A stretch of DNA of 64,000 nt from an uncultured Actinomycetota bacterium. GTDB lineage: Bacteria > Actinomycetota > Actinomycetes > JAHEKZ01. The stretch lies in assembly GCA_963848085.1 (NCBI GenBank), contig CAWKCE010000005.1, forward strand, positions 146,282 through 210,281, read 5' to 3'. The notes under the pieces were generated by a model. That model was given only the letters and a program-made list of their open reading frames with translations, had not been told where the DNA came from and searched no databases. Position 1 is the first letter of the stretch. Each line of letters starts with the position of its first letter. Shown piece after piece: positions 3,513 to 39,855 of the stretch. The translations under genes and the position numbers were made by a program.

Positions 3513-4415
3513 TCAGGGGGTCGGGGCCGGGACGGGGGCGGCTGGCGCCTCGGCGCGCTCGCGGCGCTCGCGCCCACGGGCACGGCGGGCCACAACGGCG
3601 GTCCCGGTCACCATCGCCGCAAACCCCGCCCAGCCCAGTCCGGTCGGCACCTGGGTCACCGCCTGCAGGATCACCATCCCGTTGACTAGGAGGATCAGCC
3701 CGCCGACCATCGTGCCCATGGGGGCCTGGGGAAGCCGGCCGGCCAGCCGGGCAGCGATCGGGGCCACCACCATCCCTCCGGCAACCAGACCGAGGACCGG
3801 TACCCAAGGGATGTCCTCGTGCGCGGCGCCGGTGATGAAGCCGAGCGAGGCGGCGGCCGCGACGATGAACTCCGCAGCGTTGACCGAACCGACGACGCGG
3901 CGCGGCTCGTGCCGGGTCACGGTGAGCATCGACGGGGTGACCACCGGACCCCAGCCCCCGCCGCCGGTCGCGTCGACGAAGCCACCGAGGCCACCGATCG
4001 GGACCAGCCACCGCGCCGTGTGCCCGTGCCTGGGCATGGGAATCAGCCGGACCCCAAAGCCGAAGCGGGCGAAGATCACCAGCCCGAAGAAGAACAGCAG
4101 GCCCGCCATCCAGGCCTTGGCCGAGGCCAGGCTGAGCTCGGTGAGCACCACCGCGCCGACGAAGGCGCCGATCGCGCCGGGAAGCGCCAGCCGCCGGACG
4201 ACCGCCCAGTCGACGTTGCCGTGCCGCCAGTGCGCCAGGCCGCTCACCAGGGTCGTGGGGAGCTTGGCGACGTGGGTAGCGGCCGAAGCCGCCACGGGAG
4301 ACACGCCGAAGGCCAGCAGCAGCGTGGCCGACGTGACGCCGAAGCCCATCCCGAGCGTGCCGTCCACCAGCTGCGCGGCACCACCGGCAAGCGCAAAGGC
4401 GAGAAACCACGCCAT
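3513..4415 (-). CDS. TauE/SafE (DUF81) family sulfite/sulfonate exporter-like membrane protein
   Basis: Multi-TM Gly/Ala-rich protein typical of TauE/SafE; ATG at MAWFLAF preceded by GGAAAGAGGA SD. Confidence 0.8.
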   Translation of the reverse strand: MAWFLAFALAGGAAQLVDGTLGMGFGVTSATLLLAFGVSPVAASAATHVAKLPTTLVSGLAHWRHGNVDWAVVRRLALPGAIGAFVGAVVLTELSLASAKAWMAGLLFFFGLVIFARFGFGVRLIPMPRHGHTARWLVPIGGLGGFVDATGGGGWGPVVTPSMLTVTRHEPRRVVGSVNAAEFIVAAAASLGFITGAAHEDIPWVPVLGLVAGGMVVAPIAARLAGRLPQAPMGTMVGGLILLVNGMVILQAVTQVPTGLGWAGFAAMVTGTAVVARRARGRERRERAEAPAAPVPAPTP

Positions 4416-4518
4416 ATTGTCCTCTTTCCCCATCGACTTAGAAGGAAAAATATCAGCGCTACTGCGGTATTGCAATTTCCGAATCTGAATTCAGTCTTCT
4501 GTGCCGACCACGCCGGCG
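4416..4518 (-). promoter_or_regulatory. unusually AT-rich promoter/5'UTR stretch upstream of TauE-like gene
   Basis: Local AT-rich island in a high-GC genome (ttgcaataccgcagtagcgctgatatttttcc); strong SD before ATG. Confidence 0.4.
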
Positions 4519-4605
4519 GACTGCGCACTCGACGGGGCTGGGTGTCCCCCGAGTGCGCACTCGACGGGGCTGGGTGTCCCCCGAGTGCGCACTCGACGGG
4601 CTAGC
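4519..4605. repeat. 2.5 tandem copies of a 32-bp unit containing the 14-bp perfect palindrome CGAGTGCGCACTCG
   Basis: gagtgcgcactcgacggggctgggtgtccccc repeated directly; sits between map stop and TauE promoter. Confidence 0.7.
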
Positions 4606-5425
4606 GGTGGGCGGGGGTGGCGATGCCCATCGCGGCGAACCGCTCGGCGCCGCCGTCGTGGGCGGTCAGCACCCACGGCCCCTCCGGCGTCAGCGCGACG
4701 GTGTGCTCGAAGTGGGCCGCCCAGCCGCCATCCGCGGTGACGACGGTCCATTCGTCGTCCAGGAGGCGCGTCCGGCGGTCGCCCAGGATGACCATGGGCT
4801 CCACCGCGACCGCCATTCCGGCGACCAGGTGCGGGCCGTGGCCGGGCTGGCCGTAGTTCGGCACGCTGGGCTCCATGTGCATCTGGCTTCCGATGCCGTG
4901 CCCGACGTACTCCTCGACGATGCCGTAGTCGCCCCGTGCCCGGACCGTGGTCTCGACGGCGTGGCCGATGTCGCTGACCCGACCCCCCACCGTGGCGCGT
5001 GCCAGCCCCTGCCAGAGGGCATCCTCGGTCACTTCGGCGAGCGCGCGATGCTCATCGGCAACCTCACCCACACAGATCGTGACCGCCGCGTCGCCGTGCC
5101 AGCCGTCGACGATCGCTCCGCAGTCGACCGACACCAGGTCCCCGTCGTTGATCGTCCGGTCGCCGGGGATCCCGTGGACGATCTCCTCGTTCACCGACAC
5201 ACAGATGGTCGCGGGGTACCCGTGGTAGCCCAGGAAGGAGGGGGTGGCGCCGGCGCCCGAGATGGCGGAGGCCGCCAGGGCGTCCAGGTCCCGGGTCGTC
5301 ATCCCCGGACACGCCGACTGCCGCATCAGCTCGAGGGTGTCGGCCACCACCAGTCCGGCGGCCCGCATGCGCTCGACCTCGACGGCCGACTTGATCTCGA
5401 TCCGGTTCCGGCGGCGCAGGACCAC
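4601..5425 (-). CDS. map: methionine aminopeptidase type I (GTG start)
   Basis: MetAP motifs (VCVSVNEEIVHGIP, HGIGSQMHMEP). Confidence 0.93.
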   Translation of the reverse strand: MVLRRRNRIEIKSAVEVERMRAAGLVVADTLELMRQSACPGMTTRDLDALAASAISGAGATPSFLGYHGYPATICVSVNEEIVHGIPGDRTINDGDLVSVDCGAIVDGWHGDAAVTICVGEVADEHRALAEVTEDALWQGLARATVGGRVSDIGHAVETTVRARGDYGIVEEYVGHGIGSQMHMEPSVPNYGQPGHGPHLVAGMAVAVEPMVILGDRRTRLLDDEWTVVTADGGWAAHFEHTVALTPEGPWVLTAHDGGAERFAAMGIATPAHR

Positions 5426-32943: not shown

Positions 32944-33789
32944 TCAGAGCTTCTGGACTTGGTCGAACGAGAGCTCGACCGGGGTCTCCCGGCCGAAGAT
33001 GGAGACCAGGACCTTCAGCTTCTGCTGGTCGGCGTTGATCTCGTTGATGCTTGCGGGCAGCGTGGCGAAGGCGCCGTCGATGACGGTGACCGACTCCCCC
33101 ACCTCGAAGTCCACGATCTGGACCTCGCCGGGTGCGGTGACCCCCGGGGTCTTGGCCCGCTCCGGCTCGGTGAACAAGATGGTGAGCACCTCGTCGGTGG
33201 TCAGCGGGGTCGGCTGGTGGGCGTGACCCACGAAACCGGTCACACCGGGGGTGTGCCGGACCGCGGACCAGGACTCGTCGGTGAGGTCCATGCGGACCAG
33301 GACGTATCCGGGGAACTTGTTGCGCTTGATGTGCTTGCGCTGCCCGGACTTGATCTCGACGACCTCCTCCTGGGGCACCTGGACATCGTGGATCCAGTCC
33401 TCCAGGTTCAGCGACGACCGCCGGGTCTCCAGGTTGTGCTTCACCCGGTTCTCATATCCGGCGTAGGAGTGCACGACGTACCAGTCGCCCGGCAGCGTCA
33501 GCAGATGGTCGCGGAACTCGCCGCGCGGGTCCTCTTCGTCCTCGTCGTCCTCGTCGGACTCGGTGGTGTCGGCCTCCGCGGCCGGTGCCTCGGGAGCCTC
33601 ACCCTCGGTGACGTCGCCGTCGTCGGCCACGGTGGCCCCACCCTCGGTCGCAGCGCCGTCGTCGGCCACGGTGGCGTCAGCGTCCGCGACGGCATCCGCG
33701 GCGCCGTCGTCAGCCACGACGACCTCGACGTCAGTCACGTCGACTGTGGTGGCCTCGGCTGCGGCGCTGCCGGGTTCGGTGTCGGACAC
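32944..33789 (-). CDS. nusG: transcription termination/antitermination factor NusG with acidic N-terminal extension (GTG start)
   Basis: NGN domain [15 protein letters not shown] and KOW domain; GGGAGA SD. Confidence 0.93.
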
Positions 33790-34227: not shown

Positions 34228-34391
34228 GTGGCTGCCCCGAGTCCCGACCCCGCGGGCCCGGGGCGGGCATGCCGAGTCGGGTGGTTCGAAGCCACCGTCG
34301 TCGGAGTGTACGGGGTGGGTCCGCCGGGCGTCGAACCGTGGCCGGCCCCGACCGGAAACCCGGGCGCGACGCCGCCGCCCGGTTTGGCAGG

Positions 34392-35609
34392 ATGCCAGAC
34401 ATGTCATCGCCCCCCAGCCTGTCCGCCCGCGTCGCCGGGATCGCCGAGTCCGCCACCCTGGCGGTCGACGCCAAGGCCAAGGCGCTGCAGGCCGCCGGGC
34501 GCCCGGTCATCGGCTTCGGCGCCGGCGAGCCCGACTTCCCGACCCCGGGGTACATCGTGGAGGCCGCCGCGGCCGCTGCCCACGACCCCCGCTGGCACCG
34601 CTACACACCCGCCGCGGGGATCCCGGCGCTTCGGGAGGCGATTGCGGCCAAGACGCTGCGCGACTCCGGGCTGGCCGTCGGCGCCGACCAGGTCCTGGTC
34701 ACCAACGGCGGCAAACACGCCATCTTCAACGCCGTCGCCGCACTGGTGGACCCCGGCGACGAGGTCATCATCCAGGCGCCGTACTGGGTCACCTACCCGG
34801 AGGTGGTCCGGATCTTCGGCGGGGTGCCGGTGCCCGTGGTCACCGACGAGTCCAGTGGGTACCTCGCGACCGTCGAGCAGCTCGAGGCCGCCCGGACACC
34901 GCGCACCACGATGCTGATCTTCGTCTCACCGTCGAACCCGACGGGGGCCGTCTACCCGCCGGACCAGGTCGCCGCCATCGGGCGCTGGGCCGCGGAGCAC
35001 GGGCTGTGGGTTCTCACCGACGAGATCTACGAGCACCTCGTCTACGGGGAAGCTCAGTTCTCGTCACTCCCGGTTCTGGTGCCGGAGGCCGCCGAGCGGT
35101 GCATCGTGGTGAACGGCGTGGCCAAGACGTTCGCCATGACCGGCTGGCGGGTCGGTTGGATGATCGGCCCCAAGGCCGTGGTCAAGGGTGCCGCCAACCT
35201 GCAGTCCCACGCCACGTCGAACGTGAGCAACGTCTCCCAGGTGGCAGCGCTGACCGCGGTGACCGGCTCGTTGGACGCGGTGGCTGACATGCGGGTGGCG
35301 TTCGACCGGCGCCGACGGGCCATCGTGGCCATGCTGAACGCCATCGACGGTGTGACGTGCCCGGAGCCACAAGGGGCCTTCTACGCCTACCCGTCGGTGA
35401 AGGGGGTCCTCGGGCGCACCATCCGGGGCCGCACGCCTACGTCGTCGGCCGAGCTCGCCGACCTCGTGCTGGACGAGGCCGAGGTGGCAGTGGTCCCCGG
35501 TGAGGCCTTCGGCACGCCCGGCTACCTGCGGATGTCGTACGCGCTGGGCGACGACGACATCGCCGAGGGCGTCGGCCGCCTCGCGGCGCTCCTCGCCGAG
35601 TCCACCTGA
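34392..35609 (+). CDS. pyridoxal-phosphate-dependent aminotransferase, class I (aspartate aminotransferase-like); alternative ATG at 34401
   Basis: [35 protein letters not shown] motifs. Confidence 0.9.
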
Positions 35610-35616
35610 CCCCTAC

Positions 35617-35710
35617 CGCCGAGTGCGCACTCGCCGGACACCTTTCGTCGCCGAGTGTGCACCCGCAGGACACCTTTCGTCGCCGAGTGCACCGTGGCAG
35701 AGTGCGACCC
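35617..35710. repeat. three copies of a CGCCGAGTG(C/T)GCAC motif including the perfect palindrome CGAGTGCGCACTCG and direct repeat GGACACCTTTCGTCGCCGAGTG x2
   Basis: Seen directly in the convergent intergenic region between the aminotransferase and dsrE-like gene; same palindrome as at 4519-4605. Confidence 0.65.
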
Positions 35711-35798
35711 CGGTCGCAGGGCTCCCCCACGGAGGGCGACCGGGGCCGCGGCCCGCCCACCGGCTGCCAGTCGTCAGCCGCTGGACGGAGCTTGCGGG

Positions 35799-36329
35799 CT
35801 AGATGAACAGCAGCTGGGCGCCGTCGGTCATCTCGATGAAGTCCGAGGCGTTGATGATCGCCTCGACTCCGTCGTAGAGGTCCTCCTCGGTCAGCTTGTT
35901 CATGTCCGCGGACATCCGGCAGGCCCACAGGTGGCCGCCGGACGCCACGATCTGCTCGAGGAAGTCAGGAACCTCGGGAATCCCGAGGTCGACGAGCTGC
36001 TGCTTCATCATCTTGGTCGCCATGGCCTGCATGCCGGGGACGGGCGCGAGCGCCTGCGGCACCCGGACATCACCGATGGGCATGTGCATGGCGGTGTTGC
36101 CGACCGGGCTGAACTTCAGGTCGTGCATCCGGGACTTGGTGATCATGTCGAAGCCCCAGAACGTGAAGAACAGGTGCGTCTCAATGCCCTCGCCGAGAGC
36201 GGCGTTGCCCAGCACGAGTGCCGGGTAGGCCATGTCGAGGTTGCCCTTGCTGCAGATGATGGCGAGCTTGCGGTCGGTCTCCTCGTCGTCAAACGAGGGG
36301 ATCAGGGGGGTGTCGGTCTGCGTGGTCAT
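35799..36329 (-). CDS. DsrE/DsrF-like sulfur-relay family protein
   Basis: Small protein matching the DsrE/DsrF fold family; clustered with tusE/dsrC-like, DUF1641 and sqr. Confidence 0.65.
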   Translation of the reverse strand: MTTQTDTPLIPSFDDEETDRKLAIICSKGNLDMAYPALVLGNAALGEGIETHLFFTFWGFDMITKSRMHDLKFSPVGNTAMHMPIGDVRVPQALAPVPGMQAMATKMMKQQLVDLGIPEVPDFLEQIVASGGHLWACRMSADMNKLTEEDLYDGVEAIINASDFIEMTDGAQLLFI

Positions 36330-36357
36330 CGTGTCTTCTCCTCAGGATTGGTCGCGC

Positions 36358-36672
36358 TCACACGCAGCCGTGGGGCTTCGGGACACCCGCGATGTACGAC
36401 ATCTTCTTTGCGGGCTTCTTGGGGAACAGGGTGAACAGCTTCTTGGTGTCGACCCCGCCGGCGGTAGAGACCCGGCGAATGGTGGGCGTCTCGCCCTGCG
36501 CCTGGTAGTCCTCCCGGACGAACTTGATGACCTTCCAGTGGTCATCGGTCAGGTCGATGGCGATGTTTGCGGCGAGGACCTTCGCCAGGTCCTCATCCCA
36601 CTCGGCGTACTCGGTCATGAAGCCCTCGTCGTCGACGTGGATGTCGCGGCCGTTGATCGTGGTGACTGGCAT
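36358..36672 (-). CDS. TusE/DsrC-family sulfur-transfer protein (true start internal to 306-aa ORF)
   Basis: C-terminus ...YIAGVPKPHGCV matches the DsrC/TusE conserved C-terminal Cys motif; 104 aa. Confidence 0.7.
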   Translation of the reverse strand: MPVTTINGRDIHVDDEGFMTEYAEWDEDLAKVLAANIAIDLTDDHWKVIKFVREDYQAQGETPTIRRVSTAGGVDTKKLFTLFPKKPAKKMSYIAGVPKPHGCV

Positions 36673-36677
36673 CGTGC

Positions 36678-37388
36678 TTACCTTCCTTCGTGGGGTGAGT
36701 GCGAGTCGGCAGGCTTGTCCTCGCCGACCGAGCGAAGCATGGTCAGTGCGCGGCCGAGGCCGCGGCGGGTCTGCGGGTCGCGCATCTGCTTGAACAGCGC
36801 CAGCAGCGACGGCGGTTCGACGTGTTCGTCCTCGACCTCCTGCACGGTGACGGCGGTGCGCTGCAGGAGAGTCATGACCTCCGGCTGCGTCATCTCTTTG
36901 ACCGTGTTGAGGATCAAGACGACGTTGTCGCCGAGCGCCTCGACGTCCTCCTCCGTGAACGACGTCACGACGCGGTCGACAATCCCGGCGCCGCTGCGGG
37001 CGAACGCGAAGTAGCCCTTGTCGTCGAAGTCCTGGAGCGTGGCGGTGAGCGTGGCCATGGCCGGCGTCGCCAGCGGGATGACCTCGCTGCTCAGGTCGCT
37101 GAGCGACTGGAGCTGGGCGAGAAGGGCTTCCATCGTCGGGAGGGCACGCGCCATCGTGCGTCCGAAGCGGGCCAGGTCCTCGACGGTGACGTCGTCGCTG
37201 AGGTCCTCGAGCTCGCGGCTCACCGCAGCGAACGCCTCCGACGTGACCGGAGCCATGTCCTGCACGAGCTCCCCCCACCGCTCGCGCTGCTCGCGCTCGC
37301 GACGAAGCTCGTCCGCCATGACCTGAATCTGGGCGGTGAGGATGTCGAGCCGCTCGTCGGTCGTCACCGAAGTCGTGACGGTGGTCAT
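36678..37388 (-). CDS. DUF1641 domain protein (commonly paired with sulfide:quinone oxidoreductase)
   Basis: Glu/Leu-rich alpha-helical protein; gene context with sqr. Confidence 0.6.
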   Translation of the reverse strand: MTTVTTSVTTDERLDILTAQIQVMADELRREREQRERWGELVQDMAPVTSEAFAAVSRELEDLSDDVTVEDLARFGRTMARALPTMEALLAQLQSLSDLSSEVIPLATPAMATLTATLQDFDDKGYFAFARSGAGIVDRVVTSFTEEDVEALGDNVVLILNTVKEMTQPEVMTLLQRTAVTVQEVEDEHVEPPSLLALFKQMRDPQTRRGLGRALTMLRSVGEDKPADSHSPHEGR

Positions 37389-38632
37389 GACTCCGTGTCC
37401 TCGGGAATCTCTTTGCCGGCCATGGACATCAGGGCCGGAAGCGGAAGCTCCTTGCCCGGGAGCAGCACGTTCCAGTAGATCCAGCGGAACATGAGCTTGC
37501 CCCAGTGGTTGAGCTCGGTCTCCTTGAGCAGGCTGAATGGACCGATGCCCGGGAGCGGGTACTTGCCAGGCATGGGCTCGGTGTCGTAGTTGAAGTCGAT
37601 GAGCATGCCCTTGCCGTCGCCAGACTCGATGAAGCAGTTGGCGTGGCCGTCGAACCTCTGATCCATCGCCAGTCCGTCGATGTGACGCACGAAGTTGTGG
37701 GCGAAGATGTCGACGGCGAAGTGGGCGACCGAACCCGCCTTGGAGGCCGGGATGTTCGACGCGTCCCCGATGGCGAAGATGTTGTCGTGCTGGGTCGACA
37801 GGAAGGTCTCCTTGTCCACCTTGACGTAGTTGAGATCGTCGCCCAGGCCGGACCGGGCGACGAAGTCGGCGCCCATGTTGAGCGGGATGGTCACCAGGAG
37901 GTCGAACGGGACCTCGCGCTCGTCGTATGAGACGACGGTCTTCGCCTCAGGGTCGATGCGCTCAACCATGAAGTCGGACTCGAGCTCGACCTTGCGCTCA
38001 TCGAGCATCCCGCCGAGGTACCGGGACGCGATCGGCTTGGTGAACGCACCCGGGAGGGGGGTGACGTACACGATCTCCACCTGGTCGCGGATCCCGTGCT
38101 CACGGAAGAAGGAGTCGGCGAGGAACGTGAACTCCAGCGGAGCTACCGGGCACTTGATGGGCATGTCGACGATGTGGACGACCAGCCGGCCGCCCTCCCA
38201 CGTCTTCAGCTTCTCGCCGAGCGCGGTGGCACCCTCGAACGTGTAGAACTCGTGGATGCTCTTGCCCCACTCGCCCTCGTCCATGCCAGGAGTCTCGGCC
38301 GGCCGCGGCGTGGTCCCGCTGGCGATCACCAGCTGGTCATACAAGAGCTCTGTGCCGTCGGCCAGGACGACCTTGTTCTCGTCAGCGACGACACGGTCGA
38401 TCTCGCCGTGCAGGAGGTCGACGCCCTCGGGGATGAACCGCTTGGTGGGCTTGACCACCTCATCCGGCCGGTAGGCGCCGAACGGGATGAACAGATAGCC
38501 CGGCTGGTAGTAGTGGACGTCGCGCTGGTCGACCACGGTGATCTGCCACTCGTCGCGTGGCAGCCGGGGACGCAGCTTGTTGACGACCATGGTGCCGGCG
38601 GTTCCGCCGCCGAGTACGAGCAGGCGCTTCAT
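37385..38632 (-). CDS. sqr: sulfide:quinone oxidoreductase / FAD-dependent pyridine nucleotide-disulfide oxidoreductase
   Basis: MKRLLVLGGGTAGTMVVNKL Rossmann motif and SQR-like sequence; true start is Met71 of the ORF-track entry. Confidence 0.8.
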   Translation of the reverse strand: MKRLLVLGGGTAGTMVVNKLRPRLPRDEWQITVVDQRDVHYYQPGYLFIPFGAYRPDEVVKPTKRFIPEGVDLLHGEIDRVVADENKVVLADGTELLYDQLVIASGTTPRPAETPGMDEGEWGKSIHEFYTFEGATALGEKLKTWEGGRLVVHIVDMPIKCPVAPLEFTFLADSFFREHGIRDQVEIVYVTPLPGAFTKPIASRYLGGMLDERKVELESDFMVERIDPEAKTVVSYDEREVPFDLLVTIPLNMGADFVARSGLGDDLNYVKVDKETFLSTQHDNIFAIGDASNIPASKAGSVAHFAVDIFAHNFVRHIDGLAMDQRFDGHANCFIESGDGKGMLIDFNYDTEPMPGKYPLPGIGPFSLLKETELNHWGKLMFRWIYWNVLLPGKELPLPALMSMAGKEIPEDTES

Positions 38633-38811
38633 GCAGCCCTCCCAGTCGCTGTGCTCCCACCAGGACCGGAATCCGTGGGGGATGTCCTGGGGACCACAGT
38701 AGGTGCTCCACCGTATACCCCCCAGGGCATCTGGTCCTCGCTCCCCCGGGCCTTTGGTCCCCTCTCCGGTCCGGCGCCCCCCGGCGCGCCCGCCTGGCAA
38801 GATCTCCAGCC

Positions 38812-39855
38812 GTGACGCCCACCGGTCGGGACCTTCAGACACTGCCCAAGTCCCACCTGCACCTGCACTTCACCGGCGCCATGCGTCACCGCACGCTGAT
38901 TGAGCTGGCGCAGGCGCACGGTGTCCACCTTCCGGAGCCGCTCCGGTTGGAGCGGCTCCCACACCTTCACGCCACCGACGAGCGCGGCTGGTTCCGATTC
39001 CAGCGGCTGTACGACGTCGCCAGGTCCGTGCTGCGGGAGCCGGCTGACCTGCGTCGGCTGGTCCACGAGGTGGCTGAGGACGAGGTGGCCGACGGGTCGC
39101 GCTGGCTCGAGATCCAGATCGACCCCTCTGGTTACGCCGCCCAGTTCGACGGGCTGACGGCGACCCTGGAGATCGTGCTGGACGCCGCGCGAACGGCCAG
39201 TCTGGCCTCCGGCGTCGGTATCGGGGTGATCGTCGGGGCCAACCGGACGCGTCACCCGTTGGACGCCCGGACGCTCGCCCGGCTGGCCGCCCGATACGTG
39301 GACGACGGCGTCGTCGGCTTCGGCCTGGCCAACGACGAGCGGCACGGCCCCCCCGAGGACTTCGCCCGGGCCTTCCGGATCGCCCGCGAGGCCGGCCTGG
39401 CCTCCGTACCGCACGCCGGCGAGCTCGCCGGCGCCCCCAGCGTGCGCTCCGCCTTGGCGTCGCTGGCCGCGACGCGCATTGGACACGGCGTCCGCAGCGT
39501 CGAGGACCCGGAGGTCGTCGCGGAGCTGGCGTCGCACGGCGTGACGCTGGAGGTGTGCCCGGGGTCGAACATCGGGATGGGCGTCTACGAGCAGGCGGCG
39601 GACGTACCGCTCCGTCAGCTGTTCGACGCGGGGGTGCCGATCGCCTTGGGCGCGGACGACCCGCTGCTGTTCGGCTCCCGACTCGTCGACCAGTACCGCG
39701 TGGCGCGAGACGTGCACGGCTTCGACGACGCCGAGCTGGCCGAGCTGGCGCGGATGTCGGTCCGTGGCTCGATGGCCCCCGCCCCACTCCAAGACCAGCT
39801 TCTCGCCGACATCGACGCCTGGCTCACCACCCCCGCCGCCCCCACCACCCCTTAG
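38812..39855 (+). CDS. add: adenosine deaminase
   Basis: PKSHLHLHFTGAM matches the PKxELHxHLDG signature; metal-binding His/Asp later. Confidence 0.85.
   Translation: MTPTGRDLQTLPKSHLHLHFTGAMRHRTLIELAQAHGVHLPEPLRLERLPHLHATDERGWFRFQRLYDVARSVLREPADLRRLVHEVAEDEVADGSRWLEIQIDPSGYAAQFDGLTATLEIVLDAARTASLASGVGIGVIVGANRTRHPLDARTLARLAARYVDDGVVGFGLANDERHGPPEDFARAFRIAREAGLASVPHAGELAGAPSVRSALASLAATRIGHGVRSVEDPEVVAELASHGVTLEVCPGSNIGMGVYEQAADVPLRQLFDAGVPIALGADDPLLFGSRLVDQYRVARDVHGFDDAELAELARMSVRGSMAPAPLQDQLLADIDAWLTTPAAPTTP

Follow-up and report, generated by a model that had tools for sequence, protein, structure and literature searches.

Type III sulfide:quinone oxidoreductase operon with TusE-type and DsrE2-like sulfur carriers and a DUF1641 protein in an uncultured actinobacterium

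Introduction

The physiological acceptor of the sulfane sulfur of sulfide:quinone oxidoreductase (SQR) is debated, especially in glutathione-free Actinobacteria. We analyzed a 64-kb stretch of DNA from an uncultured Actinomycetota bacterium (contig CAWKCE010000005.1 of GCA_963848085.1, positions 146,282 to 210,281; hereafter, the window), which carries a four-gene operon, i.e., sqr and the genes of a DUF1641 protein, a TusE-type protein and a DsrE2-like protein (Table 1).

The closest precedent is the operon MFUM_v2_0219-21 of Methylacidiphilum fumariolicum SolV, which encodes a type III SQR, TusA and DsrE2 and is upregulated by sulfide, and whose SQR was proposed to account for H2S oxidation (PMC10205796). 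The window likewise has, after a type III SQR gene, genes of a small sulfur carrier and of a DsrE2-type protein. In contrast to M. fumariolicum, which belongs to another phylum and has TusA and no DUF1641 gene in this operon, the window has a carrier of the TusE/DsrC family, and its DsrE2-like protein scores under the NCBIfam cutoff. A literature search for the combination of TusE, DsrE2 and sqr returned nothing relevant.

A DsrE-family cysteine protein and a TusE/DsrC protein with a penultimate cysteine are also encoded together in the TusBCD-TusE system of Escherichia coli and the DsrEFH-DsrC system of Allochromatium. In these two relays, sulfur that a cysteine desulfurase or sulfur globules supply is fed to MnmA or DsrAB. 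The window differs from them in that its carrier neighbors SQR (to which it is fused in some relatives), the PF13686 protein is a single subunit with no DsrEFH heterohexamer, and the CysB residue of DsrC is absent. CstA of Staphylococcus aureus contains TusA-like and DsrE/TusD-like domains. The cst operon (cstR, tauE, cstA, cstB, sqr) resembles that of the window in combining SQR with Cys-persulfide carriers and in having a TAC...GTA G-tract palindrome upstream (PMC8643695). A TauE-family gene is likewise present in the window, but distant from the operon. Further differences are that the cst SQR is of type II, that CstB (a persulfide dioxygenase-rhodanese) and CstR are part of the cst operon whereas neither was found in the window, and that the window palindrome has an N8 rather than an N9 spacing.

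The published roles of the DUF1641 family are enzyme scaffold, membrane attachment and quinone transport (PMC13524794, PMC8808070), and all members characterized to date have a quinone-reducing enzyme as partner (PMC13524794). Ncp (YjlC) forms tubes filled with lipid and quinone that couple Ndh to the membrane, and HucM does likewise for the Huc hydrogenase (PMC13524794); menaquinone reduction by two Bacillus formate dehydrogenases requires the DUF1641 subunit ForE (PMC8808070); and an Ignicoccus DUF1641 gene was co-induced with an adjacent pyridine-nucleotide-disulfide oxidoreductase gene (PMC3149612). What the window shares with Ncp-Ndh (9pxk, 9snk), ForE-ForC (8rqz) and HucM-Huc is a small protein, helical by prediction, that has a DUF1641 domain at its C-terminus and is encoded beside a quinone-reducing enzyme. 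Unlike in those systems, the partner is an SQR that keeps its membrane helices, the protein has 236 rather than 140–186 residues, and it is dispensable in many operons. No description of an SQR-DUF1641 pairing was found in the available portions of the literature that mentions DUF1641, and a literature search linking HucM to sulfide gave unrelated stem-cell studies only.

Results

A four-gene operon with a conserved SQR-TusE-DsrE2 core

The region 35799–38632 holds four co-directional minus-strand genes with overlapping or short junctions, at the places and on the strand given in an earlier note made from the sequence alone. Domain searches, which that note had asked for, returned the Pfam domains Pyr_redox_2, DUF1641, DsrC and DrsE_2 for the four proteins in order along the operon, each above its gathering score. 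The genes are already correctly annotated at the domain level in public databases, and their products are also found, a few SNPs apart, in GCA_032127035.1 (uncultured actinobacterium). The locus is a real four-gene operon centered on SQR with a predicted sulfur relay; this part of the earlier description agrees with both the SQR grouping of the flavoprotein and the conserved cysteine tail of the carrier, detailed below.

The SQR family is large, with at least 8000 matches at E ≤ 1e-10 and 602 clusters (50% identity) at E ≤ 1e-30. Genomes were scanned at one per species with an alignment of close relatives (A3) as seed, which yielded at least 596 relatives, of which the best 80 (64–91% identity) were kept; an alternative alignment (A2; 28 sequences, 36–80% identity) was dropped as too diverse. 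Open reading frames were called in all loci (given numbers with the prefix L) and then searched with the window proteins, and 66 loci had complete flanks. Most carriers among the best 80 belong to the Actinomycetota (cultured Nocardioides, Kribbella, Nakamurella and Micromonospora are among them), and a few are bins labeled Chloroflexia, Trueperaceae, Roseilinea or Acidobacteriota.

TusE and DsrE2 genes follow sqr in all 66 complete loci. Three arrangements were detected, i.e., SQR-TusE-DsrE2 (n = 37), HTH_17/PocR regulator-SQR-DUF1641-TusE-DsrE2 (n = 24), and the form of the window, SQR-DUF1641-TusE-DsrE2 (n = 5), so that a DUF1641 gene is present in 29 of the 66. The SQR-TusE-DsrE2 core is widely conserved and common in Actinobacteria.

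The operon lies between add and aspC-secE, a placement shared only by a strain variant (L001), L006 (91% identity), L007 (89%) and L002 (80%), i.e., by 4 of 85 related loci; in the others the cassette sits in unrelated genomic contexts. Its GC content (0.63–0.67) is 3–10 points below that of the flanks (0.69–0.75). Both observations fit the earlier proposal that the module is accessory and stands outside the ribosomal neighborhood. Given the GC dip, the varying genomic location and the presence in Chloroflexia and Trueperaceae bins, the operon may be horizontally mobile. A search of plasmids for the cassette found relatives of <40% identity only, with no sign of a plasmid-borne copy.

The flavoprotein is assigned to type III SQR in its cysteine form

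On the NCBIfam model named "type III sulfide quinone reductase, selenoprotein subtype" (NF049943), whose cutoff is 525 bits, the flavoprotein scored 635.5 bits, with residues 2–408 covering model positions 1–406 of 406; the assignment to type III rests on this curated-model score. The earlier note had called the enzyme type II. No type II SQR model is among the NCBIfam matches of the protein, the match to human SQOR (type II) reaches 131 bits vs 635 bits on the type III model, and UniRef gives the name type III SQR to a homologue of 79% identity in Kineosporia sp.

The protein holds exactly two cysteines, Cys161 (MPIKCPVAP) and Cys333 (GHANCFIE). They align with both catalytic cysteines of human SQOR, the best solved relative (E 5e-37), and are invariant in alignment A3. 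The flavin adenine dinucleotide (FAD) motifs are GGGTAG at the N-terminus and GD at residues 289–290. With no in-frame TGA and cysteine at both redox positions, the open reading frame encodes the Cys form, as do all 82 relatives examined, and selenocysteine was found at the active site neither in the window nor in those 82. One candidate for a split or selenocysteine variant (P0282, starting at Val163) was rejected as a gene merely cut by the contig end. We therefore regard the flavoprotein, on the basis of model score and residues, as a predicted type III SQR of the Cys form.

The earlier note had named a grouping with type 2 NADH dehydrogenase (NDH-2) as what would speak against SQR. NDH-2 structures align with residues ~2–120 alone (E 6e-10 to 1e-8, vs 5e-37 for SQOR), the two redox cysteines of SQR are in place, and a second GxGxxG dinucleotide motif was not seen in the protein, residues ~148–165 reading GGRLVVHIVDMPIKCPVAP; the identification as SQR stands.

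Two observations concern the family at large. The model NF049943 scores Cys-type proteins far over its cutoff, and automated names consequently call Cys forms selenoproteins (e.g., the UniRef name of P0070). In addition, P0252 is a type III SQR homologue fused to tandem CBS domains (568 aa).

A single-cysteine TusE-type carrier and a DsrE2-like protein

The 104-aa protein exceeded the cutoff of PF04358 (DsrC; 119.7 bits) and, at 92.5 bits, also that of the TusE/DsrC/DsvC model TIGR03342 (53.5 bits), and scored below that of the TusE equivalog NF008562 for tRNA 2-thiouridine synthesis (78 bits vs 191). Its sole cysteine, Cys103, lies in the C-terminal tail PKPHGCV. In an alignment to crystallized DsrC proteins, the CysB position (11 residues before CysA in DsrC) is occupied by Ser. 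These features recur in the 82 operon-linked TusE homologues: the tail reads KPxGC[VI] in all of them, CysB is replaced by Ala or Ser in all of them, and 79 have a single cysteine. The earlier note had placed the protein in the DsrC/TusE family on the strength of the cysteine tail and named lack of conservation as what would refute this. The tail and the family membership hold, while the absence of CysB indicates that it is not a true DsrC; by its sequence, it is best described as a single-Cys TusE-type carrier and not as DsrC sensu stricto.

The fourth protein, described earlier as DsrE/DsrF-like, has a PF13686 domain (112.1 bits, cutoff 25) and scores 118.7 bits on the DsrE2 model NF047629, under the cutoff of 210. 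Two structures of putative DsrE sulfurtransferases, 2qs7 and 3pnx, align with it. Among its homologues, Cys137 is kept in 75 of 75 and Cys26 in 71. We thus treat it as a predicted member of the PF13686 family rather than a certified DsrE2 orthologue.

Natural SQR-TusE fusions were found in P0245 (581 aa) and P0280 (562 aa), both ending in PKPxGC[VI]. By the Rosetta-stone argument, such fusions suggest direct cooperation of carrier and enzyme. An apparent DUF1641-TusE fusion in L026 was left unused, as the DUF1641 motif is garbled before the TusE start and the case looks like a frameshift or read-through.

The DUF1641 protein as a possible quinone conduit

The second protein matched PF07849 at 35.9 bits (cutoff 21; E 6.8e-9) over residues 188–222, and its gene is translationally coupled to sqr through the ATGA overlap of stop and start codons. 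The same overlap recurs in ~19 related loci. With a profile of 46 DUF1641 sequences, the best solved matches were ForE1/YjgD (8rqz; E 0.01, residues 115–231) and then YjlC/Ncp (9snk, 9pxk). Outside the bacterial set, L087 (Natronorubrum plasmid) and L088 (Halobaculum plasmid) encode rhodanese-SQR-like-DUF1641 and TusA-SQR-like-DUF1641-FAD oxidoreductase-DUF1641, respectively, with an MBL-fold hydrolase near. Given these haloarchaeal plasmids, on which SQR-like and DUF1641 proteins occur with TusA or rhodanese, the pairing of flavoprotein and DUF1641 beside sulfur carriers appears to span both prokaryotic domains.

The best reading of the protein, by analogy with its characterized relatives and put forward tentatively, is that of a quinone conduit or scaffold for SQR. 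A more elaborate version, in which a quinone- or lipid-filled DUF1641 scaffold docks the type III SQR and the TusE-type protein acts as dedicated sulfane-sulfur acceptor in the same complex, is possible but doubtful.

Several results weigh against a conduit. ForE1 is matched weakly (E 0.01) and Ncp not significantly (E 0.19–0.44); the AF2 monomer model is all-helical but has a pLDDT of 55 and a pTM of 0.22 (46 sequences); and DUF1641 is missing from 37 of the 66 related operons. The C-terminal amphipathic region of SQR (NHWGKLMFRWIYWNVLLPG...MSMAGK) is moreover near-identical with or without DUF1641. DUF1641 would therefore not replace a lost membrane anchor, unlike Ncp for B. subtilis Ndh. 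No SQR column separated the DUF1641-linked from the DUF1641-less group at 85%/85%, and the differences that could be made out by eye, near residues 373 and 394–396, were soft ones.

In an alternative reading, DUF1641 is no quinone conduit and serves the HTH_17-PocR regulatory unit as an accessory, or helps in assembly or stabilization, with SQR binding membrane and quinone alone. The regulator is present in 24 of the 29 DUF1641-bearing loci, and the frequent absence of DUF1641, the unchanged amphipathic helices and the lack of discriminating columns fit as well. On the other side, the window and four other loci retain DUF1641 without the regulator, the DUF1641 start overlaps the sqr stop and not the regulator gene, the archaeal SQR-like/DUF1641 pairs recur without an HTH_17-PocR regulator, and all characterized DUF1641 proteins have quinone-reducing enzymes as partners. 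We regard this alternative as a serious one that is nevertheless unlikely to be correct.

Two regulatory designs upstream of sqr

In the five-gene form of the operon, a 232–256-aa protein with HTH_17 and PocR domains is encoded directly 5' of sqr, often overlapping it (e.g., L002:9276-9983, L003:9306-10004, L005:9216-9986). Two of its cysteines are near-invariant (31 of 33) and a third is frequent, and its gene co-occurs nearly exclusively with the DUF1641 gene. A 235-aa version is encoded between add and sqr in L002, which has the same add/aspC-secE flanks as the window, and tblastn found no HTH_17-PocR homologue in the window. The window lineage, to which L006 and L007 also belong, has therefore lost the gene. 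The HTH_17-PocR protein may be a new sensor of sulfide/persulfide or of quinone; a literature search linking PocR to sulfide returned nothing relevant.

The window instead has a CsoR/CstR-type operator-like palindrome ~85–95 nt upstream of the sqr ATG (position −94), TGCCCTGGGGGGTA, which has one mismatch to TACCC-N4-GGGTA. Perfect sites are present at −97 and −98 in L006 and L007, and the conserved block reads TACCCTGGGGGGTA in these two loci and upstream of the L002 regulator. Across the loci, 21 sites that match TACCC-N4-GGGTA with ≤1 mismatch were counted in the 22.4 kb lying directly upstream of sqr vs 44 in the remaining 1.2 Mb (~25-fold enrichment). Sites upstream of sqr were detected in 21 of 52 regulator-less loci and in none of 33 regulator-bearing ones, which points to two mutually exclusive designs, i.e., the HTH_17-PocR regulator or a CsoR/CstR-type operator. 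Taken alone within the window, the palindrome is not significant.

Published CsoR/CstR operators are G-tract TAC...GTA pseudopalindromes, e.g., ATATACCCCTNAGGGGTATAT and ATATACCCTTATGGGGTATAT (PMC3902906, PMC8643695). Two features of the window site count against such an assignment: the mismatch falls in the critical TAC triplet, and the spacing is TAC-N8-GTA vs N9 in the published operators. Genes for PF02583 repressors with two cysteines stand beside L045, L063 and L068. The earlier note had asked for a persulfide-sensing regulator nearby, and three CsoR-family queries gave no tblastn match in the window. A CstR-like persulfide sensor probably acts on the site in trans, as judged from the enrichment of such sites, and the TAC mismatch may weaken this control in the window. 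A consensus scan of 35400–39100 found no sigma-70-like promoter.

Proposed mechanism and alternatives

From the genes present and their synteny, the motifs and conserved cysteines, the fusions and the operator-like site, we infer the catalysis, the direction of sulfur flow, the function of DUF1641 and the regulation as follows. The operon would oxidize H2S at the cytoplasmic face and hand the sulfur product to proteins. Type III SQR would carry out the oxidation at its Cys161/Cys333-FAD site, the sulfane sulfur staying enzyme-bound, and two electrons would reach, via FAD, the quinone pool of the membrane (menaquinone in Actinobacteria). Rather than being released as polysulfide or to glutathione, the sulfane sulfur would be taken by Cys103 of the TusE-type protein on its flexible C-terminal arm, exchanged with Cys137 of the DsrE2-like protein, and then delivered to low-molecular-weight thiols, oxidized further or used in biosynthesis. 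To judge by its homologues ForE, Ncp/YjlC and HucM, DUF1641 would be an optional fourth subunit whose helical oligomers form a scaffold, hold SQR at the membrane and channel or store menaquinone for it. Control of the operon by a persulfide-responsive CsoR/CstR-type repressor encoded elsewhere is probable. Taken as a whole, this combination of sulfide oxidation, menaquinone reduction, TusE/DsrE2 relay, optional DUF1641 and persulfide-responsive repressor is the best explanation of the locus, and we hold it to be reasonably probable.

Some points sit poorly with it. In canonical relays, DsrE-type proteins donate to TusE/DsrC. The dioxygenase/rhodanese part was not found in the window (tblastn with the fused TauE-dioxygenase-rhodanese protein of one relative as query), and, as noted above, neither was a CsoR-family gene; the TauE gene at 3513..4436 was all that the tblastn searches of the window yielded. 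The operon is thus not the described SQR detoxification set (sqr, persulfide dioxygenase, rhodanese/CstA and CstR) that the earlier note took it for, since these queries gave no dioxygenase, rhodanese or CsoR-family match in the window.

Persulfide dioxygenase (PDO) and rhodanese do occur near the cassette in some relatives. In L003:44-2383, L010:4570-7204 and L057:6514-9265, a TauE-PDO (Lactamase_B)-rhodanese fusion, or PDO-rhodanese and TauE as separate genes, lies a few kb off.

The families of TusE and of DsrE (TusD-like) owe their definition to the tRNA thiolation relay of E. coli, and several sources name members of the cluster "tRNA 2-thiouridine synthesizing protein E". Together with the lack of a dioxygenase homologue in the window (tblastn), this would fit assimilatory or biosynthetic trafficking, in which a protein persulfide feeds thio-cofactor or tRNA 2-thiouridine synthesis rather than detoxification or respiration. 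We consider this improbable. The carrier falls well short of the TusE equivalog cutoff, its gene always adjoins that of SQR and is fused to it in some cases, some related loci show hallmarks of sulfide stress (PDO-rhodanese and TauE genes; CsoR/CstR-type operators), and neither mnmA nor tusBCD was seen in the Pfam-annotated flanks of L002–L005.

A dissimilatory, energy-conserving role, with SQR sulfur passing via TusE/DsrE2 to an sHdr- or rDsr-type complex encoded elsewhere, seems a little more remote still. TusA/DsrE/DsrC-type relays do feed rDsr and sHdr systems, as in Allochromatium and Hyphomicrobium, and M. fumariolicum, with its similar operon, fixes CO2 with H2S as its only source of energy. 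Against this, the Pfam-annotated flanks of L002–L005 contain no sHdr/rDsr-type complex, most of the relatives are found in heterotrophic Actinobacteria of soil and freshwater (e.g., Nocardioides, Kribbella, Micromonospora), and the TusE-type protein is without the CysB needed for DsrC trisulfide chemistry.

That the flavoprotein is not an SQR but of the NDH-2 or CoA/persulfide reductase type, its carrier neighbors being coincidental, is very improbable: the Pyr_redox_2 fold is common to all of these, weak NDH-2 and CoA-disulfide reductase matches were found and B. subtilis Ndh has a DUF1641 partner, but the NDH-2 similarity is confined to the N-terminal ~120 residues whereas that to SQOR runs over the full length, the type III model score, the invariant cysteines and the missing second GxGxxG point to SQR, and the carrier genes are syntenic in all 66 loci.

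The 3' end of the operon and other features

Past the dsrE2-like gene, a GC-rich hairpin is retained in L006, and the region folds at z = −4.1. It likely forms the operon's 3' end or its terminator; no canonical intrinsic terminator was found in 35400–39100, and the hairpin has no T-tract.

Between the hairpin and the aspC stop lies a 32-nt tandem repeat, whose full units span 35617–35680. It carries the palindrome CGAGTGCGCACTCG at 35620–35633 and a two-mismatch copy at 35652–35665. With ≤2 mismatches, CGAGTGCGCACTCG has 5 matches in the window vs 1.0 expected, a number reached in 0 of 100 shuffles. A second array (4518–4595), 31 kb away and directly 3' of map, has three units with the same palindrome and 32-nt spacing. 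Both arrays directly follow a stop codon (map, aspC), have equal orientation relative to the upstream gene and share a GGACACC/GGTGTCC spacer. The repeats are absent from L006 (91% identical), which keeps the hairpin without them, and differ by SNPs in L001. The earlier note had assigned the palindrome repeats to the 3' end of the module. They are present there as described, and we rejected them as a part of the operon given their absence from L006 and the second array; they look like a dispersed REP- or terminator-like element.

A gene for a TauE/SafE-family (sulfite-exporter-like) membrane protein is a further apparent accessory insert in the adk-map/ribosomal neighborhood, with an unusually AT-rich leader (~4400–4510).

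Table 1 Coordinates of the operon, its flanks and other features in the window.
Feature	Position	Strand	Details
sqr	38632..37385	-	415 aa; ATG at 38632; GGGAGG ribosome-binding site 5 nt 5' of ATG
DUF1641 gene	37388..36678	-	236 aa; start ATG shares ATGA with sqr TGA
tusE/dsrC-family gene	36672..36358	-	104 aa; ATG at 36672; GGAAGG upstream
dsrE2-like gene	36329..35799	-	176 aa; GGAGAAG upstream
Divergent add-sqr intergenic region	38633..38811	-	179 bp; presumed seat of operon promoter
CsoR/CstR-type operator-like palindrome	38716..38729	.	+ strand TACCCCCCAGGGCA; sqr strand TGCCCTGGGGGGTA
GC-rich hairpin	35704..35749	-	~50 nt past dsrE2-like stop; arms 14 nt, 93% complementary; loop 18 nt
32-nt tandem repeat	35617..35693	.	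2 full units and partial third; carries CGAGTGCGCACTCG; between hairpin and aspC stop
Aspartate aminotransferase (aspC)	34380..35609	+	flank on dsrE2-like side
nusG	32944..33789		secE sits between nusG and aspC
Adenosine deaminase (add)	38812..39855	+	flank on sqr side; murB on same side
TauE/SafE-family (sulfite-exporter-like) membrane protein	3513..4436	-	PF01925 E 2.5e-40; between map (4601..5425) and infA

Discussion

SQR-based sulfide oxidation is itself well known, and nothing in this operon is unexpected in kind. The new elements are the coupling of SQR to a TusE-type protein and its pairing with a DUF1641 protein. The two regulatory designs found upstream of sqr provide candidates for a new persulfide sensor.

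A conserved and translationally coupled SQR-DUF1641 pair would extend the quinone-carrier principle to sulfide respiration. If the conduit reading is true, sulfide oxidation would be a fourth respiratory input of DUF1641 conduits, after Huc, ForCE and Ndh-Ncp, with examples in Actinobacteria, Chloroflexia and haloarchaea.

The core present in all 66 complete loci and the SQR-TusE fusions name a concrete protein candidate for the debated acceptor of SQR sulfane sulfur. If this role is true, a TusE-type acceptor would answer the question of what takes the sulfur from SQR in bacteria without glutathione.

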